Origin: Naegleria gruberi
Taxonomy: Eukaryota
NCBI GenBank assembly: GCA_000004985.1
Contig: GG738889.1
Strand: one strand, 5' to 3'
DNA length: 64,000 nt
A program made the position numbers and the translations under genes. Below are positions 45,598 through 63,940 of this stretch, piece by piece (positions within the stretch are counted from its first letter, which is position 1; the number at the start of each line of letters is the position of its first letter). Under the pieces are notes generated by a model. The model ran no database searches and was not told the origin of the DNA. It was given only the letters and a program-made list of their open reading frames with translations.

Positions 45598-48500
45598 TTG
45601 GGAATTCACAAAGATTCAAAAATTCTAAAATTGGAACAATCAGAAATGCAAAGTCAAATAAAAAAAATGTCACAACAACCCACTCAACCACCTCCCAATG
45701 ATAATGATATCAATATTCTGAGATATCCAACAATAACCCCTACTAATAATAAGAAACCACACAAAGGTGGTTTTATTAAAATTCCAATCACTCCAAACTC
45801 AACCAATGACACAATCGATCCACAGAATATTAACCAGAAGACCAACACTTCTTTATCCACCACTACTATAGATGCTAATGTGAAGCCTGTAGTATTGAAT
45901 AATACATCTCCTACTGATGGAAAAAGAAACAAGCCAAAGAAGAAGAATGATGCGTCATCAAATGCATTGAATGTTGGTGGTCAATCAAGTGCTGCATCTT
46001 CATCATTGGATGTTGTTGTACCTCCATCACCATCATCCGAAGCATCTGCATCATCATCATCTACATTCAGTAAGAAAGGTAGAGAATTTAAACCCTCCGA
46101 ACATGCAAACAAGAGATTTTCACAAGTACTTTTAATGTGTGGAAAATGTAATTCATGTCTTGCTGCCAATACTTTGGAAGCCTCTCACATGTTTAGTGTT
46201 TTCAAAGATGATCGTACGAGACATGCTGTTCTGAAGGATCAAAATGTGATTGGGAATACCTTGATTGAGAAGGAAACCAATTTCAAGTTTGAAAAGAAAA
46301 ACGAAAAGTACCGAAAGACTCACATGTTATATTGTAAAGCATGTAATCAAAAAGTGGGTTCTAGATTTCCAGGCAATTATCCAGATACTGAATTGCCTAA
46401 AAGAATGTTCGATGGTAGTGATTGTAAGGTTTCATGTAAGGAGTTGAATAATGATGATGGACAAGATGTTGTAATGAATGTTGAAGAGTGGAGAACTTTG
46501 AGTAGTTCATTGAGAGATTATGGATTATATCCTCCACGTCATGTATCTTCTCAAGATTCATCGAGAAATAATTCCAGAGATGGTTCTTTCAAGAAGGATT
46601 TCAATGGAAAGAAACCAGTAGAAAGTGGGACGAATGAAAACAAATTTCAAAAGAAGGAATTTAACAAGAAGAGTTTTGAAAAGAAGAATCATCAACCAAA
46701 TGAACCGATTACATCAATCCCATTTATAAGCAACAATGAGGTGGATAATATCTTTGGAAGAAACAATCAAGGATCGTCATCTTCATCACCATTCATCAGA
46801 AACATTTCTCCAAAATTTGGTCAATTGTCTCAAGCAAGAGTTCAAAAAGATTTGCCTCCAAAAAAGGAAAAGAAAGATTACACAATCAAAACTGTTAAGG
46901 GTATTGGTTTTTATATTGACAATTCACTTTTCAATGAAAATCAAAAAGAATATTTCATCAAGAACTTAACACAAGAAGAATTCAAATCAATATTCAATAA
47001 GGGAGGTCTTTTAGAGGAACAAGAAGTTAATTTTTCAATTATTGAAAAGCTCATGAAGGTCTTTGCCCATGAGCAAATAGAATTATCAACTAACAAGTCA
47101 CTAATCACCCCAATCTTTTCTCATCTCATGAATAGCTTATTTTGGAGAAGAGTTGTAAAGAAATATATTGTACAGGATGTAATTGATGATGAACAAGTTA
47201 AAGACTTGATCACAGTTTTTCACAGATGCTTGGAGTTTTGTCCACAGGAAGCTGAGAGAGTTTTCATTGAAGAATTAGAAAAGGTGTACATTGACAAATT
47301 CGTCTCTCAAGATTATCAGGAATCCATTATGGCAATCAAGAAAAGGAAGCAAGCACTCAAATTGGCCAACTCAAAGATGGATAAAGGACCACTACCTGAA
47401 CAACAAGAAATCAACGAAAATGATGAAAATGAATTTGAGGAAATTAGTGTCTTTCCAACTTTCAATGAATTGACTTCGAATGAAAGATTCAAAGTTAGAA
47501 ACAATGTTGATGGCCCTTATTCTTCTTTGAGAGAATATATTAGGACTCAAATATTGTTATTGAGAGAGGATTTTATTCATCCACTCAAGGATGGCATTCA
47601 ATCTTTCCTTTCCAATAATTGTAACCATAGATCAATTTCAGTTTTCACAGATTGTCAATTCGTGTCTGTTATTTCATCAGATAATGAACGTGAATTAGTT
47701 CATTCTCTTTCATTCCATTATCCTTGGAGAAGGATCAATTGGGAATGTACCAAAAAATTAGCTTTCGGTTCCCTTCTCTGTTTATTCCCACAAGAAGGTT
47801 CTGGAAAGAATGCAACCATTGTAAAATCAGAGCCAATATTTGTAACAGTTTTGGATAGAAAATCGGTCTCAAAAGAATTAATTTATGTTGGTTTGAGTAG
47901 AGTTGAGGATTTCAAGAGACTTTCTCTCGTTGGAAAATATGTCATGTTTGAATCACCTGCTTATTTCGCTGGAGTTAGACCTGTCATTGATTCTCTCAAT
48001 ATGATTCTCAATGAAACCTTAATTGACCAATCCAAATTTACATTTTATGATGAATTCATCAAATTGAAACAACAAACTCCACCACAATATATCGAAAGAG
48101 ATAGTTTTATGAATTTAGATGTTATCAAGGGAGATCAAAGAAGATCGACTCAATCAGATTTATCTACTGGAAGAAAAACTAATATTTTGAGTAATTGGAT
48201 TGAGGATAATGAGACTTTCCTTGATCCTAGTCAAAACAAGGCCATTCAACACGTTATGAGAAATAGAGTTTCAATTGTAAGTATAAGAAATCAAACTATT
48301 GCTCTAATTTTGAAAGGTAATTGGACCTCCAGGTTGTGGAAAAACGTTTACAGGAATTGAGATTGCTAAATTATTGAAGAGTCACCCAGATATGAAAAAT
48401 AGACAATTAATATGTATTACTTATACTAATCATGCTCTTGATCAATTTTTAGAAGGTTTAATTGATTATTTCCCAGATATTGTCAGAATTGGCAGTAGAA

Positions 48501-51500
48501 GTAAGAGTCAGAATGAGAAACTATTGAATAGAAACCTTTCTAAAATGAGATATTTGCCACAATATCTATATGTAGAAAAGCAAAAGTGTGAAGCTGAATT
48601 GAGAAGGTTGTCACTCACAATTGGTGCAACAGAACTTTCTATCAAGAATCCAGACGATAGTTTACTTCGCCACTTGGCAAAATCATTTGTATTTAATAGA
48701 GCTCTCTCAAAATTCCCAATTCACCTGTATAGCAAGAGAAATCCACCTCCAGAAACCTTACAAGCCATGTTCAGAGCTTGGTTAGGAGGAGACGATCTCA
48801 GAAGAAAGGAGAGTTTACAAAAGAACATGCAAAAGGCCTATAGAACTGCTAATTTCTTTAGAGTTCTACAAGAAAATAACAATGAAACACAAGAAGAAGA
48901 CGAGGAGGAGGAGAAGCTCATTATTGAAGAGGAACCTCAGAGAGAAATCATTCCACAAGAAGAAGTTATTGTGGAAGAAGTTGAAGATGAAATCGAAGAA
49001 GAAATTGAAGCCGAATTGATTAATGAAGAAATGAGAAATATATTTGGCTATGAAGAAAATGAAATCACCAATGAAGTTGCTATTACTAAAATGTATGAAG
49101 ATTTAGAGGATGCATCAGATATTCAATCAGAAACTCGAGCAGAAATCCAAAAAATAGAGCAAATAGTCAAGCAATGTGGGGATATTTACAGAATTCCTCT
49201 CAAGAAGAGAATTTCAATGCTCAACCCATTGAGAATTTTGAATGAGAAACTACTCAAGGCACGTCTCATTGATTTATGTCATCTTAGAAGCCACTATGAG
49301 AATAGAAAATACGAAATTATTATGGATGGAGATTATGACAAATTGAAAACTGCCTCAGTTATTGGATTGACTTCTACAGCTGCTTCCATGAATAGACAAC
49401 TATTGAATAGATTAAAGTCACCTGTCTATCTCATTGAAGAAGCTGCTGAATTATTGGAATGTCAAATTACTTCTGTATTGCATCCAAATGTTGAACATTT
49501 AATTATGATTGGTGATGAGAAACAACTTCAACCTAAAGTCAACTCTTACTACTTGGAGAAGAATTGTGATTTCACTGTGAGTTTATTCGAAAGATTGATC
49601 AGAAATGGATTGGAATATTCTTCACTCAATGTCCAACAAAGAATGAGACCAGAAGTTAGAGAATTAGTCGATATGTTCTATGAGAAACTAATTGACCATG
49701 AAAGTGTTAAACAATTCGAAAATGTTAATGGAGTGAGTAAGAATGTTTGCTTTATTGAACACAAGAAATTAGAAAAGACCTCAGATGATGTTCAATCATT
49801 GACCAATCCACATGAAGCTGAGTTTTTATGCAAGTTTTCAAAGTATCTTCTCAATGTCAGACAATTCAAGGCAAGTCAAATTACAATTCTGACACCTTAT
49901 AGAGGACAAGTTATTTTGATTAAAAAGACACTCAGGGAATTGCTTAATCAAGACTTGTATAGAGAATTGAGAGTTTCTACTGTTGATGATTATCAAGGAG
50001 AAGAAAATGAGATTATTTTACTTTCGTTGGTGAGATCGAATAACTTTGAAAATCTTGGATTTGTTAAGATTACCAACAGAATTATTGTTTCATTGAGTAG
50101 AGCAAAGAAGGGTCTCTACATTATTGGCAATCACGATTTGTTAAGAAATAACGAAGATTGGAGAAAGGTCTTTGCTAGACTAAAACATTCGGATAGAATT
50201 TTGGATCATTTACCTCTCTCCTGTCCAACACACTCTGAAGAAAGAGAATGCATAAGAGAACCAAGTGATTTTGATGGTGTTATCTGGGGAGGGTGTAAGA
50301 AACCATGTACTTATCGTTATCCATGTGGACACATTTGTTCATTACCGTGCCATCATGATTCATTACATAAGGAAAGAAAATGTGAAAAGATTTGTGGTGA
50401 AAAATATGAAGATTGTGGTCATAGATGCGAGGACAAGTGTCATCATGGAAAATCCTGTCCAAAATGTAAAACTAAAGTTGACTACAAGTTTGTGGCATGT
50501 GGACATGTTACAAAAGTTGCATGCCACTTGAAAAATACTACTCAATTGTGCAAATCAACGTGTAACAAACTTCTTGGATGTGGACATAATTGTAGAGGAC
50601 AATGTGGACAATGTGGATTAACTGGTTGTGGACCATGTATTGCCACAGTCAAAGATTATTGTGAAACTTGTAAGAAACCATATGAAAGAAGATGTTCAGA
50701 GCCAAGAATCTGTACAAATCGTTGTACTGTCAAACTATCTTGTGGACATGCATGTTCTGGAAAGTGTGGTGAATGCTCAACCAGTGGAACTCATAAAGTT
50801 TGTGGATTCAAGTGTGAGAGAAAACTCATTTGTGGACATATTTGTAAAGCTAAACATACTTGTAGTAATCCGTGTCCAAAATGTGAGGAAATGTAAGTAT
50901 TTCAATTTATGCTTTGATTTTTATAATTTCCATAGTTGTAAATTCAAATGTTTCCATAATATTCAATGCAAGCTTGCTTGCCATGAAATGTGTCACAAGT
51001 GTAAGGAGCCATGTCCAATTCAATGCCCACACAGAAAATGTACAAATCTTTGTCATGAGTTGTGTAATGTGGAGCCATGCAATGAGAAGTGTCCAAACAT
51101 CTGTTCAAAATGTAATCATCAATGTATGGGACTTTGTGGAGAGCCATGTCCACCATGTATGTATTGCGATACTCTGAAGAAAGAGGAGGAAGAAATGTGG
51201 CAATGCCCAATCTCTTTTTACACATTTGAAGATTTAATTCAAAGCGACGATTCGAGGGTTTATCATTTACCTGAATGTGGACACACCATTGAACTTGAAT
51301 CAATGGATAATTGTGTGAAAACCTTCTTTGATACGGAACAAGGAGTTTCAATCAAATACTTGTCATGTCCAGTGTGTAGAACTCCAATATTTACTTCTCC
51401 AAGATATCAACACTCTATCAAGCAATCTGTTGAAAGAATGGAAAATCTCAAATATGTAATTTACAAAAAGGCAGAGGAGGAAAAAGAAAGAAAGCAAGCT

Positions 51501-51725
51501 ATTAAGGCTGTCTCTGCTGGCTATGCTTCTGGTCATTGGTTCACTTGTCCAAATGGTCATCCATATTTCATTGGTGATTGTGGAGGAGCCATGCAACAGA
51601 GTACTTGTGTTGATTGTGGAGAACAAATTGGAGGTTCTAATCATACACTATTGGCTTCTAATCGTTTAGCAACTGAGATTGATGGTTCCACAGCCCCAGC
51701 TTGGCCAACTGCTCTTAATAGATAA
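45598..51725 (+). CDS. ZNFX1: NFX1-type zinc-finger-containing helicase, ZNFX1-like (Upf1-like SF1 helicase, NF-X1 zinc fingers and a C-terminal RZ-type zinc finger). Three exons, ~2000 aa.
   Basis: Exons 45598..48276, 48317..50892 and 50936..51725, with introns of 40 bp (gtaagt..gaaag) and 43 bp (gtaagt..ccatag). Splicing restores Walker A 'VSIVIGPPGCGKTFTG'. Helicase C-terminal block 'TVDDYQGEENEIILLSLVRS'. Many CxxC/CxH NF-X1 repeats (50300..51170). RZ finger 'GHWFTCPNGHPYFIGDCGGAMQQSTCVDCGEQIGGSNH'. Confidence 0.8.
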
Positions 51726-56904: not shown

Positions 56905-57045
56905 AAAATTAAAATCTTATTATTTTTGAAAAAACAATGTGTGTTAATATTATTAATTGTCCAACAATTCAATCATTTTGTTTTCTTAATTTACCATATC
57001 TGGTCTCAATTCGGCCGCCAAATTTAATTTCCCAACTTCAAAAAA

Positions 57046-58029
57046 ATGTACTCACTCCAAAAAGCTTCCCGATGCTTATTATCCAACAGCAGACAATCCC
57101 ATCTTGCCACTAGATTTCCATCATCCTTTATTACTTCATCAAATCAAGTAATTTATAGAGGATTTTCACAAACACAATTCAAGAGAAGTGAAGAAAAGAA
57201 ACAAGAGGAATCAAGATCCGAAGAACAATCACAACAACAACAGGAAGAAAAAAAGAGTTACTTTAAGAGATTGTTCTCACCAGCCAATTTGATCTTGCCA
57301 GCCGTGTTCGGAATTGTTTTATATAATTTTGCATCATATGATGTTCGTCAAAAGAAACGTGAGGCTGAATTGGAGAGTAAGTTTTCATTCTGTGATGTTG
57401 ATGATAATAGTAATAATACAATAATTCAACAATGATAATGATAATAATATTAATAATGGAATTAATTGGAATAATTAGAACAAGCAAGTAGCAAGGCTGT
57501 TAAAGCTGTAGGAGCTCCAAAACTTGGAGGTGCTTTCACTCTTGTTAATACTAAAGGAGAAGTTGTTACAGATTCTGAATTTAGAGGAAAATTCATGTTC
57601 ATGTATTTTGGATTTACTAATTGTCCTGATGTTTGTCCAACTGAAATGAAAAAGATGACAAAAGCACTTCAAAAAATTGAAAAGGAAAATCCAGAGTTGG
57701 CAGACAAGATTGTTCCAGTGTTTGTTTCATGTGATCCACCTCGTGATTCATGCACAGCTGTCATTGAATATCTTCAAGATTATCACCCAAGATTTGTTGG
57801 ATTAACTGGTACTCCAGATCAAATCAGTAGAATTTGTAAGAAATATAGAGTTTATTACAATGCTCCTGATTACAAGGAAGGATCACAAGATTACTTGGTT
57901 GACCACAGCATTTTCATTTACTTGATGGATCCATATGGTCACTTGTCTGAATATTTTGCTCAAAATACTACTGCTGATAAGATTTACGAAAGTGTTAGTA
58001 CAGCCTTAAAATCATATAAATGGGAATAA
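57046..58029 (+). CDS. SCO1: SCO1/SenC cytochrome c oxidase copper chaperone with a mitochondrial presequence. Two exons.
   Basis: Exons 57046..57376 and 57479..58029 with a 102-bp intron 57377..57478 (gtaagt..attag). Has the 'GGAFTLVNTKGEVVTDSEFRGKFMFMYFGFTNCPDVCP' CxxxC copper site and a downstream His, 'DHSIFIYLMDPYG'. Confidence 0.85.
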
Positions 58030-58150
58030 ATTATTTCTTTAAATTTTCAAGGATTTAAATTTTTTCATTCCATTACATTTTGATTTTGAATTCTTTTACA
58101 ACATGAAGAGATATTTGTGGCATGTTCAAAATCAAAATTAATTTAAAAAA

Positions 58151-58787: not shown

Positions 58788-61700
58788 TTAATCTAGTAAG
58801 TCAACTTCAGTAAATTTAACTGAACTATTTGCATCCTCCAATTTTTGAAGTTTGAGTGGAGGAACCTTATTGTATGTAGCTGAAAGAGTTGGATGGACTT
58901 GTTCTTCTGTAGCTTCTGAAAGCTCAAGAGGGGTTTCTTCATATTTATGAACAACTACACTGTTCGATTTTACAAAAACTTGTCCACCACCATAGGTTAC
59001 CTCACCAGAAGTTGATGTAACTTTTTGAGTCTTTCTAGCTCCATACCAAATGCAGAAGAAAATTGATGCAAGAGTTACGCACAGACATAATGCAAACATT
59101 ACAGTGGAGAGCACAACACCTGCTACATATGTGAATGAATGATATACTGTTGTTACTGTTTCCATGATGAAAACATTTGTTAATTGTTTACATCTGCATA
59201 CAGCATATGTATCATTCATTGATAGCATTATGCAATCAACTGCAACCTCTGTTGAACCATCATCAAAATTGCCACAAGAATATCTTACTTCTTGTTCTAT
59301 ATAATCTAATGTAGTGTGAATAACTTCATGGATTGCAATAGATTTGTTGATAGGAATTTCATAAACCAAATATTGCGAATTAACTGGAATAGACAAATCA
59401 ATTAGTTTAAGGGAAACAATTGGTGAAACTAAGCTAGACATTTGATAGGTTTGTGAATCGACTTTTTGGGAGATTGTTAACTTTGTGTTCAAAGAAAATA
59501 CATCAATTGAACTTGAGAAAATATATACAAATGGTTTCTTGAAAAGTGTAGTAACCTGAGGACTGAAATCAAAGATGTAGTTTTCCATTTGAACAGATGC
59601 CTTACTAACATCATCATGAATTGAGGTAGGCATGTCAAATATTGTGTGTCTATTTACAGTCATCGAGTAGAATGACCCTGTCTTTTGTTGTTTCTTACTT
59701 CCCACAACAATATTTCGTCCAATTAAACAAGTGGACAATTTGAGAGCTGACAATAATCTACGAGAGTTGGTTGATTGATCTACAAAGTATTGTCTATTGA
59801 TGATATAACTATAAGCAGATTCTACACTACTGACAAGCAATGTTTCAATCTCTGGAGCTAATTTAAGATTTGGATCAGCCAAAGCATACTCAAGGAACAT
59901 ATTCAATGTGAAAAGCGATTCTGATATTGTTTTGGAATTGAGCAATTGGTAATTGATCAACAGAGAGTCAATTGAGAATGATAACAAGGAGAGATAGTAA
60001 TCATTTACGAATCCGTCAGTACTATTCGCAATGTAAATCATATCTCTGAGTACTATCATCTTGGTTCCTTGAATATCAGAAAAAGCTTGAATAGAATCTG
60101 AGCAATCAGATCCAATCCAACCATCTTCACATTTACAGACACCTGAAATGTCTCTTCCATGAATACACTCTATAGTTCTTTTTACTGGTTTGGATGATAC
60201 ACTGTACAGTTTCTTTAAAAGCTGTTGTAACAAGACAGAGTCAGTTCTTGAGGTTGTAGCTGATTGATAGAAGCTTGAACTAAATTCTCCCTTAGAGGTA
60301 AATTCAGAACTCTTCTCAGCCCATTCCTTAACAATTTTAGAGGCATCTGAAAAATCACTAATGACTGGCTTTGAAATGGTCAAATTTTGATAAGTAGTTA
60401 TTGAGGCACCAGTAACTGTTTGAATCACCTCAAAGTAACACGTTAAGGTAGAACCACTGAAAGGAGCTGGAAGCTTTGAAGAGTAAATGTCACCAAACTT
60501 GTAGAGCTCAATTTTTGATCCTGATCTATCATCAATGAATCCGTACTTGTAATCAATATTTGCTTCAATGTTCTTGCAGTTGGAACAGTAGAACTTGAAT
60601 TCTGTTTCTAGAGCTTGACCCTTGAGTGGTGAAATAGTACAATCACAAGGTTTTGGGGTTACAGCAATGGTGAATGAGTAACTTGATTGAGTTGAAAAAC
60701 CAGTCTTTTTGTCAAAAATAATGCATGTCACAACATTGGTTGAACCTTCTTCGAGCTGTTTGGTGTCAATAATAATTGTGATTGTCTTGTCAATTGTTGT
60801 GTTACTACAAGAGGTGTTTTGTAAAACAGCTCCATTCAGCAACCAGGTAGCATTCACAGAGGAAGATTCAGCATAAAGCAGGGCTTGAATTGACAAAAAT
60901 TGTCCAGGAAGTAAAATAGAGGAGGAAGGCTCGATATGAAGAATGTTCAATAGTGGAGGAACTTTACCAAAGAATACAGTGGTTGTCTTTTCAATTGATC
61001 GACCATCTAATTTTTCAACTCTCAGTTTAAGTTCTACAGAGGATGGGATAGTAGAGAACAATGAGCTTGACACTACAAATTCTGAAGCCTTTGTTGAGCC
61101 TGCATTGTTGAGCAAATTAACTAGTTCAGGACTTGTGTTATCCAAACAGGTCCAAGTCCATGTTTCAATTGAGCTATCATGCAATGACATTTCTGGGTCT
61201 AAATAATCAACTTCAATAGTGGTATGGTATTTGGTAGATTCACTTTGAATAATGCTAAGAATGAGGTCAGGTGACTTTGTTACAATATTAACGATAGTGG
61301 ATGCTTTCAATGATGGGTTGGAAGCATAAAAAGCTGACACCTCAAAAGTGTAATTTTGAGTCCCAAACTTGCTAACAGAAGGAATGAACAAGTTATTGTA
61401 AGAGTCTGAACTGAATGTTATGGCTGAGCCACTCAACTTGGTCCATTCCACTTGCAATACGTCACTATCACTTTGACATACAGAAGGTGTAATCACTTTC
61501 TTTACAGTGAGAGGGAATTGGTTTGTATACTTTACAATTGTCTCTCCCTTATTGCTTGTACTGAGTAGAGGAAGTGGTTTTACTGCTTTGGTGAATCTCT
61601 TGGAAGACACAGTGCTACTCACCAAATTTAACCACTTACTTTTAACATAGAGGGTCATAATGTAGTCACCAGCTGTAAGAGAAGAATCAAGTGTAAAGAT

Positions 61701-62714
61701 GGATTGTCCTTGTAATATTGAGACAGGATTCATGGTTGTAGCATCTAGAAGTGACCAATAATACAATAATTGCTTGCCATCTATGGAATAGCTCGAAGAG
61801 CCATCAATAGTGATTGTGTCGCAAGAACTATAGATATCTGTACTGGCCATTTGAATGATAGCTTTTGGTGGTGAAATATTTTGAGGTACATTCACAGTCA
61901 ATGGCATGTATTGTTGATGGATTTGCTCATTTTCAAAAGCAAGATCATTAATTTGAATTGTTGTCTCTCCTGGTTGAATATCATAATCAACAGAACCAAA
62001 AGATATCATAAAGAGTCCGCTAACCTTATCTAAATATTGGCACTTGATGTTTGTTATCGAGCCATACACATTCTTGCTAATGTCAGAGGGATGTAGTAAG
62101 GATGAGCATGGAACATCCTTTTCGATAAAGTCATAAGGTGAATGCAGATAAAAGGTTATACCCTTAAAATCTGACGATATCACTGCTGGTCCTACAACCC
62201 TTGATGAACACTTCTCACCATGATACTCTGATTGACATGAACTACATGAACGGCCTGTCCAAAATCCCTCCTTAATACTTGAGTGGCATTCACATTCTCC
62301 CTTAATATTGCACTCTCCATGACCAGTGCAATTAATAATTCTATCGCAAAAAGTTGGCGATATTTCCAATTGACAATTACTACCCTCATAACCACTCGAA
62401 CAAGAACAGTTATTCAATGAAATACATGCTCCTCTCCCTGAACAAACACTCGTATCATTTGCTCTCATTCCCTCACATGTAATACTGTCCTCACCTAGCT
62501 TATTCAATTTACATTCAATCCTAGAAGAATTTAATAACACTAGCAGCACAGCCATCAAAGTTAAAAATATTATCGAAAAACCTGTCGTACGAGACGATGA
62601 TGGCTTGGTGTTATGATTGATTAAGGCGGCGAAAATAGCCCTGCCGCGAATTGGCTGCGTCATTGTTGATGTGTTTTTTTGTGGTGGGAAAAGCTGTTGT
62701 TTATAATATCGCAC
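58788..62714 (-). CDS. Large single-pass membrane glycoprotein with N-terminal EGF-like Cys-rich modules, a long REJ-like extracellular region, a GPS-like motif and a C-terminal TM (sea-urchin REJ / PKD1-like architecture).
   Basis: 1308-aa intronless ORF. Signal/anchor 'FSIIFLTLMAVLLVLL'. EGF-like 'CSGRGACISLNNCSCSSGYEGSNCQ' and 'CTGHGECNIKGECEC'. GPS-like 'YSCGNFDDGSTEVAVDCIMLSMNDTYAVCRCKQLTNVF'. TM 'VAGVVLSTVMFALCLCVTLASIFFCIWY'. Confidence 0.55.
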   Translation of the reverse strand: MRYYKQQLFPPQKNTSTMTQPIRGRAIFAALINHNTKPSSSRTTGFSIIFLTLMAVLLVLLNSSRIECKLNKLGEDSITCEGMRANDTSVCSGRGACISLNNCSCSSGYEGSNCQLEISPTFCDRIINCTGHGECNIKGECECHSSIKEGFWTGRSCSSCQSEYHGEKCSSRVVGPAVISSDFKGITFYLHSPYDFIEKDVPCSSLLHPSDISKNVYGSITNIKCQYLDKVSGLFMISFGSVDYDIQPGETTIQINDLAFENEQIHQQYMPLTVNVPQNISPPKAIIQMASTDIYSSCDTITIDGSSSYSIDGKQLLYYWSLLDATTMNPVSILQGQSIFTLDSSLTAGDYIMTLYVKSKWLNLVSSTVSSKRFTKAVKPLPLLSTSNKGETIVKYTNQFPLTVKKVITPSVCQSDSDVLQVEWTKLSGSAITFSSDSYNNLFIPSVSKFGTQNYTFEVSAFYASNPSLKASTIVNIVTKSPDLILSIIQSESTKYHTTIEVDYLDPEMSLHDSSIETWTWTCLDNTSPELVNLLNNAGSTKASEFVVSSSLFSTIPSSVELKLRVEKLDGRSIEKTTTVFFGKVPPLLNILHIEPSSSILLPGQFLSIQALLYAESSSVNATWLLNGAVLQNTSCSNTTIDKTITIIIDTKQLEEGSTNVVTCIIFDKKTGFSTQSSYSFTIAVTPKPCDCTISPLKGQALETEFKFYCSNCKNIEANIDYKYGFIDDRSGSKIELYKFGDIYSSKLPAPFSGSTLTCYFEVIQTVTGASITTYQNLTISKPVISDFSDASKIVKEWAEKSSEFTSKGEFSSSFYQSATTSRTDSVLLQQLLKKLYSVSSKPVKRTIECIHGRDISGVCKCEDGWIGSDCSDSIQAFSDIQGTKMIVLRDMIYIANSTDGFVNDYYLSLLSFSIDSLLINYQLLNSKTISESLFTLNMFLEYALADPNLKLAPEIETLLVSSVESAYSYIINRQYFVDQSTNSRRLLSALKLSTCLIGRNIVVGSKKQQKTGSFYSMTVNRHTIFDMPTSIHDDVSKASVQMENYIFDFSPQVTTLFKKPFVYIFSSSIDVFSLNTKLTISQKVDSQTYQMSSLVSPIVSLKLIDLSIPVNSQYLVYEIPINKSIAIHEVIHTTLDYIEQEVRYSCGNFDDGSTEVAVDCIMLSMNDTYAVCRCKQLTNVFIMETVTTVYHSFTYVAGVVLSTVMFALCLCVTLASIFFCIWYGARKTQKVTSTSGEVTYGGGQVFVKSNSVVVHKYEETPLELSEATEEQVHPTLSATYNKVPPLKLQKLEDANSSVKFTEVDLLD

Positions 62715-62887
62715 TTCTTTCTCTTAAGCGAACTAGTCACAGCCAATGCTGATTCATTTTTGAAAATTGTAGGACATTTAAGGAAGATGATTCATTTAGA
62801 AATTTTGCCAATGAACCAGTGGCAATAAGGAAAAAACAGTCTTGCATTAAAACAAATATTAAAAAAAATAAAAATTGAAAGAAAAAA

Positions 62888-63940
62888 ATGCAGAGAATGG
62901 TGTGGAGAGGAGGAGCGATTGTTTTTGGAGGAATGTTGGGTTATTTCGGAAAGAATTATTTGAGAGATTTTAAAAAAGAGTTTTTAGAAAAGAAGATGCA
63001 AGTAGATCACTTGTTGTTTACTAGTAAATTGTTAAAGTTTAGGAAATTTTCTAATGGTGATCCGATGGTAGAAGATATTGATTGTAAATATTTGGAATTG
63101 ATTAGTGATTATTTGGTTTTTAATTTAAAATCATTACCTATGGATGATGGTAATTTGAAAAGAAATATTTCTAGTGGAACTTGTTTTGTGACAAGTCCAA
63201 TGAATGATCCATCTTGTGAATATATTTATTTGGTGACTGCTGCACACTGTGTTATAAATAAGGAGGGAAAGGCAAAGAAAGTTGGACTCATTCCAAAGAA
63301 TAAGGAAGGTTCCATATCAAATCAAAAACTAAAATCGAATAGTGGAGAGTTAATCGAGTGTCAAATAATTTGTTGTGAATATGATGGAGATAGAGATGTG
63401 GATTTTGCAATTATGAAATGTTCTAGGAAGGAATTTTTGGAAAAGAATGGGTTTACTGAGATACCTAGTCAATATTTTGTGCCTAAGATTGGTGAATTTA
63501 AAGAAAATGATGATAATTTGAATAATATAATAGTTGGATATCCTTCAAAGTATAAAGAATATAGAGATAAGCGAGTACTAGATTATACTTTTGAAAAATT
63601 GAATGGGTTAATGATGACATATCAAAAGAGACCAGTATTTTCTTTTGGAAGATATTTAAGAACGGAAAAGAGTAACTCAGAGAAGGCAGATATCACTATT
63701 TTTACGAACACCATCAATAAGGGATTCAGTGGCGGTCCTTCCATTGAATGGAGAGGTAATACATCTCAAAATGATACACTCCCTAAATTTCATGGTATTG
63801 TGGCATTGTTTGATGATGCTGGATATGGATCTTTTAATGTTTCGAATGAAGAATTTAGGCAGGCTTACTTTTCACATATTGAAATTCCTTCAACAACTGG
63901 TCTAGATATAAAGAAAGCCATCGAGGAATATAGAAAATAA
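62888..63940 (+). CDS. Trypsin-like serine peptidase (S1 family, Trypsin_2/DegP-core-like, no PDZ) with an N-terminal hydrophobic segment.
   Basis: Catalytic His 'LVTAAHCV', Asp in 'DVDFAIMKC' and Ser in 'GFSGGPSIEW' (GDSGGP-like), in the canonical order. 350-aa intronless ORF. Confidence 0.7.
   Translation: MQRMVWRGGAIVFGGMLGYFGKNYLRDFKKEFLEKKMQVDHLLFTSKLLKFRKFSNGDPMVEDIDCKYLELISDYLVFNLKSLPMDDGNLKRNISSGTCFVTSPMNDPSCEYIYLVTAAHCVINKEGKAKKVGLIPKNKEGSISNQKLKSNSGELIECQIICCEYDGDRDVDFAIMKCSRKEFLEKNGFTEIPSQYFVPKIGEFKENDDNLNNIIVGYPSKYKEYRDKRVLDYTFEKLNGLMMTYQKRPVFSFGRYLRTEKSNSEKADITIFTNTINKGFSGGPSIEWRGNTSQNDTLPKFHGIVALFDDAGYGSFNVSNEEFRQAYFSHIEIPSTTGLDIKKAIEEYRK

Follow-up and report, generated by a model that had tools for sequence, protein, structure and literature searches.

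The HtrA/DegP/Deg proteases (MEROPS subfamily S1C, including the PDZ-less plant Deg5) combine a chymotrypsin fold of the Pfam Trypsin_2 type, catalytic residues in the order His-Asp-Ser, an xINxGxSGG context around the nucleophile and a C-terminal G-x-F-x-[IV] block; many HtrAs bear an N-terminal signal or anchor. The staphylococcal V8, Spl and exfoliative-toxin proteases (S1B) are PDZ-less, monomeric Trypsin_2-type domains, and the TTSPs (transmembrane serine proteases of type II; e.g., TMPRSS2) are true S1A zymogens: they have Asp194, are cut at an activation site, and carry stem domains and several disulfides. A gene at positions 62,888-63,940 (+) of a 64,000-nucleotide stretch of Naegleria gruberi DNA (contig GG738889.1, assembly GCA_000004985.1; hereafter, the window) encodes a 350-residue protein that invites comparison with all of these. 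The gene is probably vertically inherited, fast-evolving and restricted to Naegleria, and probably specifies an active, membrane-tethered PA-clan endopeptidase of generic Trypsin_2 type.

The Naegleria protease shares with HtrA/Deg the Trypsin_2 match and the order of the catalytic residues, and its Ser context and C-terminal block are similar. It differs in that it lacks a PDZ domain, carries TAAHC with conserved Cys partners instead of TNxHV, has Phe before the nucleophilic Ser where HtrA has Asn (GFSGGP vs GNSGG[AP]), and contains long insertions at residues ~180-250. With the S1B enzymes it has in common its PDZ-less Trypsin_2-type domain, a similar size, a GYP motif after the Asp strand and the Asp motif D-[LF]-A-I-[VM]-K. 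The zymogen, disulfide and stem features of TTSPs are all missing. The membrane-anchored, PDZ-less S1 protease MarP (Rv3671c) of Mycobacterium tuberculosis is among the closest known systems.

The gene is real. Its open reading frame (ORF) starts with ATG and ends with TAA; an A-rich leader precedes the ATG, and an in-frame TGA lies four codons upstream (62,876-62,878). A 350-codon open frame in DNA of ~32 % GC has a chance, computed from base composition, of ~1e-12 per start. The product agrees at every residue with XP_002673617.1, a "predicted protein" of N. gruberi NEG-M (EFC40873.1; UniProt D2VQH9; locus tag NAEGRDRAFT_71232 on a 348,446-bp scaffold); thus, the gene is already public, as an uncharacterised protein. 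The identity of the annotated protein and the unbroken frame makes 62,888-63,940 a complete single-exon coding sequence of 350 codons plus stop, and the preliminary description of this locus was right to call it intronless. This is unremarkable, because five of the nine neighbouring ORFs that were looked up also match their annotated proteins exactly. A preprint inventory of Naegleria proteases does not mention the family in its main text.

The protease domain spans residues 94-330 (63,167-63,877), with TAAHC at residue 117, DVDFA at 170 and GFSGGP at 279. The family was aligned by MAFFT with bovine trypsin, chymotrypsinogen, Staphylococcus aureus V8, Escherichia coli DegP, human HtrA2 and SGPB. 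The DegP and HTRA2 references were checked against the PDB (369 bits over 178/178 and 363 bits over 173/173 residues, respectively); a profile of an alignment containing the chymotrypsinogen, trypsin and V8 references found all three at 187-233 bits, and SGPB is backed by streptogrisin matches only. H120, D172, G217, G279, S281, G282 and G303 occupy columns invariant with respect to all six references. His120 (codon cac, 63,245-63,247), in TAAHC, is likewise invariant within the family; Asp172 (gat, 63,401-63,403), in DVD-FAIMK, falls in alignment column D101 and is kept in every family member that covers the site; and the nucleophile Ser281 (agt, 63,728-63,730), in NKGFSGGP, falls in the invariant columns G208/S210/G211. 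The string NTINKGFSGGP is identical throughout the family. The His, Asp and Ser residues are thus present in order, as first proposed, and the catalytic and oxyanion residues are invariant among sequences just 43 % identical, which argues for retained activity.

The preliminary description had assigned the domain to the PDZ-less Trypsin_2 type, and the profiles agree. Trypsin_2 (PF13365) matches residues 97-287 with 29.1 bits (E=1.8e-6), a borderline pass of its gathering cutoff of 27.6, and Trypsin (PF00089) fails, at 15.5 bits under a cutoff of 20.6 (orthologs: 16.6-17.4 bits or no score). No PDZ domain is matched in Pfam at E<=1, and only ~20 residues follow the protease domain.

The domain is also not that of a typical eukaryotic zymogen, again as anticipated. 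Phe280, invariant in the family, stands in the column of chymotrypsin Asp194, no IVGG-like activation N-terminus precedes the domain in the sequence or the reference alignment, and no Cys occurs beyond residue 178. Four Cys are conserved in the family: C99, C121, C158 and C178, matched by C155/176/216/236 in Naegleria lovaniensis and C155/178/218/238 in Naegleria fowleri. C158 and C178 lie on the two strands of the Asp172-bearing hairpin in both AlphaFold2 (AF2) models. C121 corresponds to trypsin Cys58, and C99 lies two alignment columns from Cys42, so that this pair may be the counterpart of the chymotrypsin 42-58 His-loop disulfide; within the S1A set (42-58, 136-201, 168-182, 191-220), it is the only candidate pair found. 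This possible disulfide, together with the S1A-like TAAHC and SGGP motifs and a best single HHalign partner in chymotrypsinogen, speaks for a divergent eukaryotic S1A chymotrypsin/trypsin, i.e., a protease secreted for digestion or placed at the surface, from which the zymogen mechanism and most disulfides have gone. This origin is improbable.

Sequence methods do not separate the HtrA from the S1A subfamily. The family hidden Markov model (HMM), run against the reference proteases with hmmsearch, gives at most 3 bits for each and aligns only the His and Ser motifs. HHalign against single references yields whole-domain but weak alignments, with probabilities of 39 % for chymotrypsinogen, 24 % for SGPB, 15 % for DegP, 12 % for trypsin, 10 % for HtrA2, 5 % for alpha-lytic protease and 4 % for V8; two-sequence reference profiles give 36.8 % for HtrA (DegP plus HtrA2), 39.2 % for S1A, 18-26 % for S1E and 4 % for S1B. 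Against PDB sequences, neither phmmer nor the family profile finds a protease, despite the hundreds in the PDB; the sole match, a proteasome activator, is spurious. NCBIfam offers no protease-family model at E<=1, its sole match being a spurious holin model, and a viral fold search in BFVD returned nothing meaningful. A mixed-bait profile search was swamped by streptogrisins and trypsins, and the MAFFT alignment made from it misplaced the catalytic Asp and was left out of AF2.

The motifs themselves form a mosaic. TAAHC and SGGP are S1A-like; the TINKGFSGG context, the DFAIMK Asp strand and the C-terminal GSFNVSNEEF block follow the S1B/S1C Trypsin_2 style. The Ser context compares with AINRGNSGG in DegP and AIDFGNSGG in HtrA2, and the C-terminal block with GIGFAIPSNMV and GISFAIPSDRL. 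Modelling adds a partial view: AF2 on the full-length protein with five sequences gives a predicted local distance difference test (pLDDT) score of 35.5 and is unusable, and a domain-only model (pLDDT 44.5) has a usable N-terminal barrel alone. The nearest structural neighbours of this barrel are HtrA/Deg proteases. They would fit a diverged ancestral, endosymbiont-derived eukaryotic protease of the HtrA/Omi type that has lost its PDZ domain and performs membrane-anchored quality control in the mitochondrial intermembrane space, as HtrA2 does. However, this ranking comes from ~90-117 aligned residues of a moderate-confidence half model, HHalign shows no preference for HtrA over S1A, the His motif with its paired Cys is not TNxHV, neither a PDZ domain nor an NCBIfam protease-family match is found, and the N. 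gruberi protein has no basic N-terminal extension; descent from HtrA/Omi is unlikely, if still the best placed of the alternatives.

The family is small and isolated. A word-indexed search of 5.8 billion proteins gives two matches, and an exhaustive phmmer search of 1.84 billion 50 %-cluster representatives gives four: a 99 % allele, a 66-69 % relative, a 46 % relative and a 143-residue fragment. Profile searching adds one further member, for about six family sequences in a total of roughly 15 billion proteins. Two members bear species names, N. lovaniensis XP_044542808.1 ("Serine protease" in UniRef) and the N. fowleri protein; the remainder are metagenomic. By source, the matches comprise N. 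gruberi, N. lovaniensis, N. fowleri and two metagenomic relatives. No relative outside Naegleria appears at E<=1e-3 in phmmer of the 1.84e9 representatives or in the profile searches. Pattern-plus-tblastn scans find none in 185,579 bacterial and archaeal species (one genome each), nor among the viral contigs of IMG/VR or the metagenome contigs of JGI; because their patterns were specific to the family, these scans exclude fairly close relatives only. Permissive tblastn (E<=10) of plasmids and phages returned noise only. By sequence comparison, this is a very divergent trypsin-fold serine protease restricted to Naegleria.

Naegleria-type contigs carrying the gene, L001 and L002, occur in environmental metagenome assemblies. 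L001 (metagenome ERZ929261, run ERR1078381) encodes a protein 99 % identical to that of N. gruberi, with three nonsynonymous and four synonymous codon differences; its upstream 236 nt are just 73 % identical position by position, in an ungapped comparison. This suggests a closely related strain or species whose promoter region has diverged or bears indels.

The preliminary description offered two origins, horizontal gene transfer (HGT) or a lineage-specific protease. The second stands in that the family is confined to Naegleria; the first is not supported. Had N. gruberi recently acquired a bacterial Trypsin_2/HtrA-core protease gene, this would account for the Trypsin_2-type motifs without S1A zymogen features, for the single exon and for the best match in PADLOC, a protease-type LmuA (Lamassu) model that residues 94-284 hit with 24.7 bits (E=3.3e-6). 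Neither the N. lovaniensis nor the N. fowleri ortholog matches that model, and the hit is most likely a generic Trypsin_2 resemblance; single-exon genes are usual in the window. The donor is missing among bacteria, archaea, plasmids, phages and viruses in the searches described above. The gene's GC content (0.316), GC content at third codon positions (0.254) and codon adaptation index (CAI) to its neighbours (0.757) all lie inside the neighbours' ranges (CAI 0.665-0.808), so codon usage, a check proposed at the outset, is native and indistinguishable from the surroundings. Those surroundings are AT-rich (GC 0.31-0.37), dense with long ORFs and eukaryotic in Pfam content: ATG14, PI3K, GH38 alpha-mannosidase, insulinase, F-box, BTB, ankyrin, ZNFX1 and REJ/EGF.

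Synteny points the same way. Orthologs are present in three Naegleria species, and the gene block, as read in N. lovaniensis, is conserved: F-box (65 % identity), ankyrin (52-68 %), NUDIX (65 %), the protease (43 %) and, farther on, a methyltransferase (45 %), with the protease again a single exon (contig PYSW02000052.1). Downstream of the 66-69 % relative lies a convergent methyltransferase gene with 85 % identity to its N. gruberi-type counterpart. No gene of the block evolves faster than the protease (43 % vs 65 % for F-box and NUDIX; 66-69 % vs 85 % for the methyltransferase). The conserved block in N. lovaniensis and in this relative therefore places the gene in the common ancestor of these Naegleria, since when it has outpaced its neighbours in divergence. 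Support for recent HGT is lacking: there is no donor, the composition is native and the synteny is conserved; such a transfer is extremely improbable and close to refuted. An ancient bacterial or endosymbiont origin has been proposed for eukaryotic Trypsin_2/HtrA proteases generally (PMC5982838); for this gene, it is neither shown nor excluded at the present divergence.

A hydrophobic N-terminal segment, proposed from the outset, is present, but it is not of transmembrane (TM) grade in N. gruberi itself. There, MVWRGGAIVFGGMLGYFG (residues 4-21, 62,897-62,950), a putative weak membrane anchor, is Gly-rich and weakly hydrophobic, its best 19-residue window averaging 0.78 on the Kyte-Doolittle (KD) scale, where the usual TM threshold is ~1.6. 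The aligned segments of the orthologs are TM-grade: NITLILIAGVGVSFMIGAW of N. lovaniensis scores 1.85, N. fowleri 1.76 and the metagenomic protein P0004 1.67. In N. lovaniensis and N. fowleri, ~60 strongly basic, His-rich residues precede the helix, so that by the positive-inside rule the predicted orientation would be type II, with the protease outside the cytosol. A bipartite basic and hydrophobic layout would also look like an HtrA2-like presequence followed by a stop-transfer segment. These sequences would fit either a route to the secretory pathway, phagosome or surface or a place in the mitochondrial intermembrane space.

The segment is followed by a conserved family-specific linker, residues 41-85 (HLLFTSxLLxFRKxSNG ... 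DYLVFNLKSLP; 63,008-63,142), in which Y75, L76, V77, F78, K81 and S82 are invariant in the family alignments; in the AF2 model, its end supplies strand one of the N-terminal barrel (domain residues 6-12). A missing upstream exon in N. gruberi was considered and rejected: the intergenic DNA is 173 nt long, without room for a coding exon, and the sole plus-strand ORF upstream (62,679-62,828), compared by eye, is unlike the ortholog N-termini.

In L002 (metagenome ERZ27245887), which encodes the 66-69 % relative, homology begins at about residue 70 (…YLELMSDYLVF; L002:85-110), with an in-frame TAA at the position of N. gruberi Lys67 and "tttttag" just 5'. Either an intron lies here, or this form has no N-terminal anchor and linker. 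That apparent lack of the whole N-terminal region, the Gly-rich, low-scoring N. gruberi segment and the absence of a conserved N-glycosylation sequon would all suit a soluble, cytosolic protease or pseudo-protease whose N-terminal segment is no anchor. Yet three orthologs have TM-grade segments at the aligned position, the four conserved Cys suggest an oxidising compartment, and the invariance of the catalytic and oxyanion residues speaks against a pseudo-protease; a non-anchored protein is hard to credit.

Several observations weigh against an active, tethered enzyme of the Trypsin_2 type. The Pfam match of the N. gruberi protein is marginal, and the scores of three orthologs (27.5, 23.1 and 22.7 bits) fall below the gathering cutoff. 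The fold of the Ser-bearing half is read from its motifs and from weak HHalign alignments (at most 39 % probability), and AF2 leaves the C-terminal barrel at pLDDT <30, i.e., not modelled. The N. gruberi segment is below the TM-helix threshold, and its flanking charges give no orientation. The gene's locus tags and accessions are absent from the searchable literature.

On the preferred reading, namely a vertically inherited, membrane-tethered Trypsin_2-type endopeptidase, catalysis would proceed via a charge-relay triad of His120, Asp172 and Ser281, whose conservation is described above, with a predicted oxyanion hole around Gly279 and Ser281 in which Gly279 would be the oxyanion-hole glycine. 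S1A-type activation by N-terminal insertion would not take place, since Phe280 stands in for Asp194 and an IVGG-type neo-N-terminus is lacking; nor would canonical HtrA-like regulation be expected, because there is no PDZ domain. The long family-specific insertions after Asp172 (residues ~180-250) and the pre-domain linker are, speculatively, candidates for lineage-specific regulation or oligomerisation. Family comparison suggests that the enzyme is held at a membrane by one hydrophobic N-terminal helix, with the catalytic domain non-cytosolic: in the lumen of the secretory pathway or phagosome, on the cell surface or else in the mitochondrial intermembrane space; C99, C121, C158 and C178 are compatible with two disulfides in such an oxidising compartment. 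Because the nearest structural neighbours are HtrA/Deg quality-control proteases, limited proteolysis or breakdown of proteins that are unfolded or lie near a membrane would, by analogy, be the most likely job. A bolder version, in which a Naegleria-specific, membrane-tethered, PDZ-less HtrA-like protease replaces mitochondrial HtrA2/Omi or acts at the phagosome or cell surface in trogocytosis, is improbable.

The protease gene stands head-to-head with a gene on the opposite strand (58,788-62,714, -) for a 1308-residue membrane protein with REJ, EGF (teneurin-like) and PKD-like features; the A-rich intergenic stretch between them (62,715-62,887) presumably holds the promoter and 5' untranslated region. 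The otherwise syntenic N. lovaniensis block lacks a REJ/EGF gene, NUDIX there lying directly 5' of the protease; the gene is either an N. gruberi-specific insertion or an N. lovaniensis loss. A functional link between the two neighbours was rejected on the same absence. N. lovaniensis also carries a SCO1/SenC gene between its ankyrin and NUDIX genes (L003:6064-7135); in the corresponding N. gruberi interval (56,905-58,150), no ORF of at least 150 residues is found, so that the copy there is either missing or split by an intron. Farther upstream, a 920-residue ORF with a ZNFX1 domain (45,598-48,360, +) and an 840-residue ORF with AAA_11/AAA_12 helicase domains (48,374-50,896, +), separated by a 13-nt gap, probably belong to a single ZNFX1/NFX1-type helicase gene that a short intron or a frameshift divides; another ORF (50,628-51,725) overlaps the end of the second.

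This is a very divergent, genus-restricted enzyme of a well-known kind, a modest curiosity on which no long-standing question turns. It does carry a caution: the argument that a bacterial-style, intronless gene must have come by HGT fails here, and in intron-poor protists Trypsin_2-type proteases should not be taken as a flag of HGT without a donor. If the account given here is true, a branch of the trypsin-fold protease superfamily that evolves rapidly is private to Naegleria. The ortholog in the brain-eating pathogen N. fowleri has no detectable human counterpart and may merit testing as a selective target or marker; were the HtrA-like, tethered version true, drugs or diagnostics could be aimed at it selectively.
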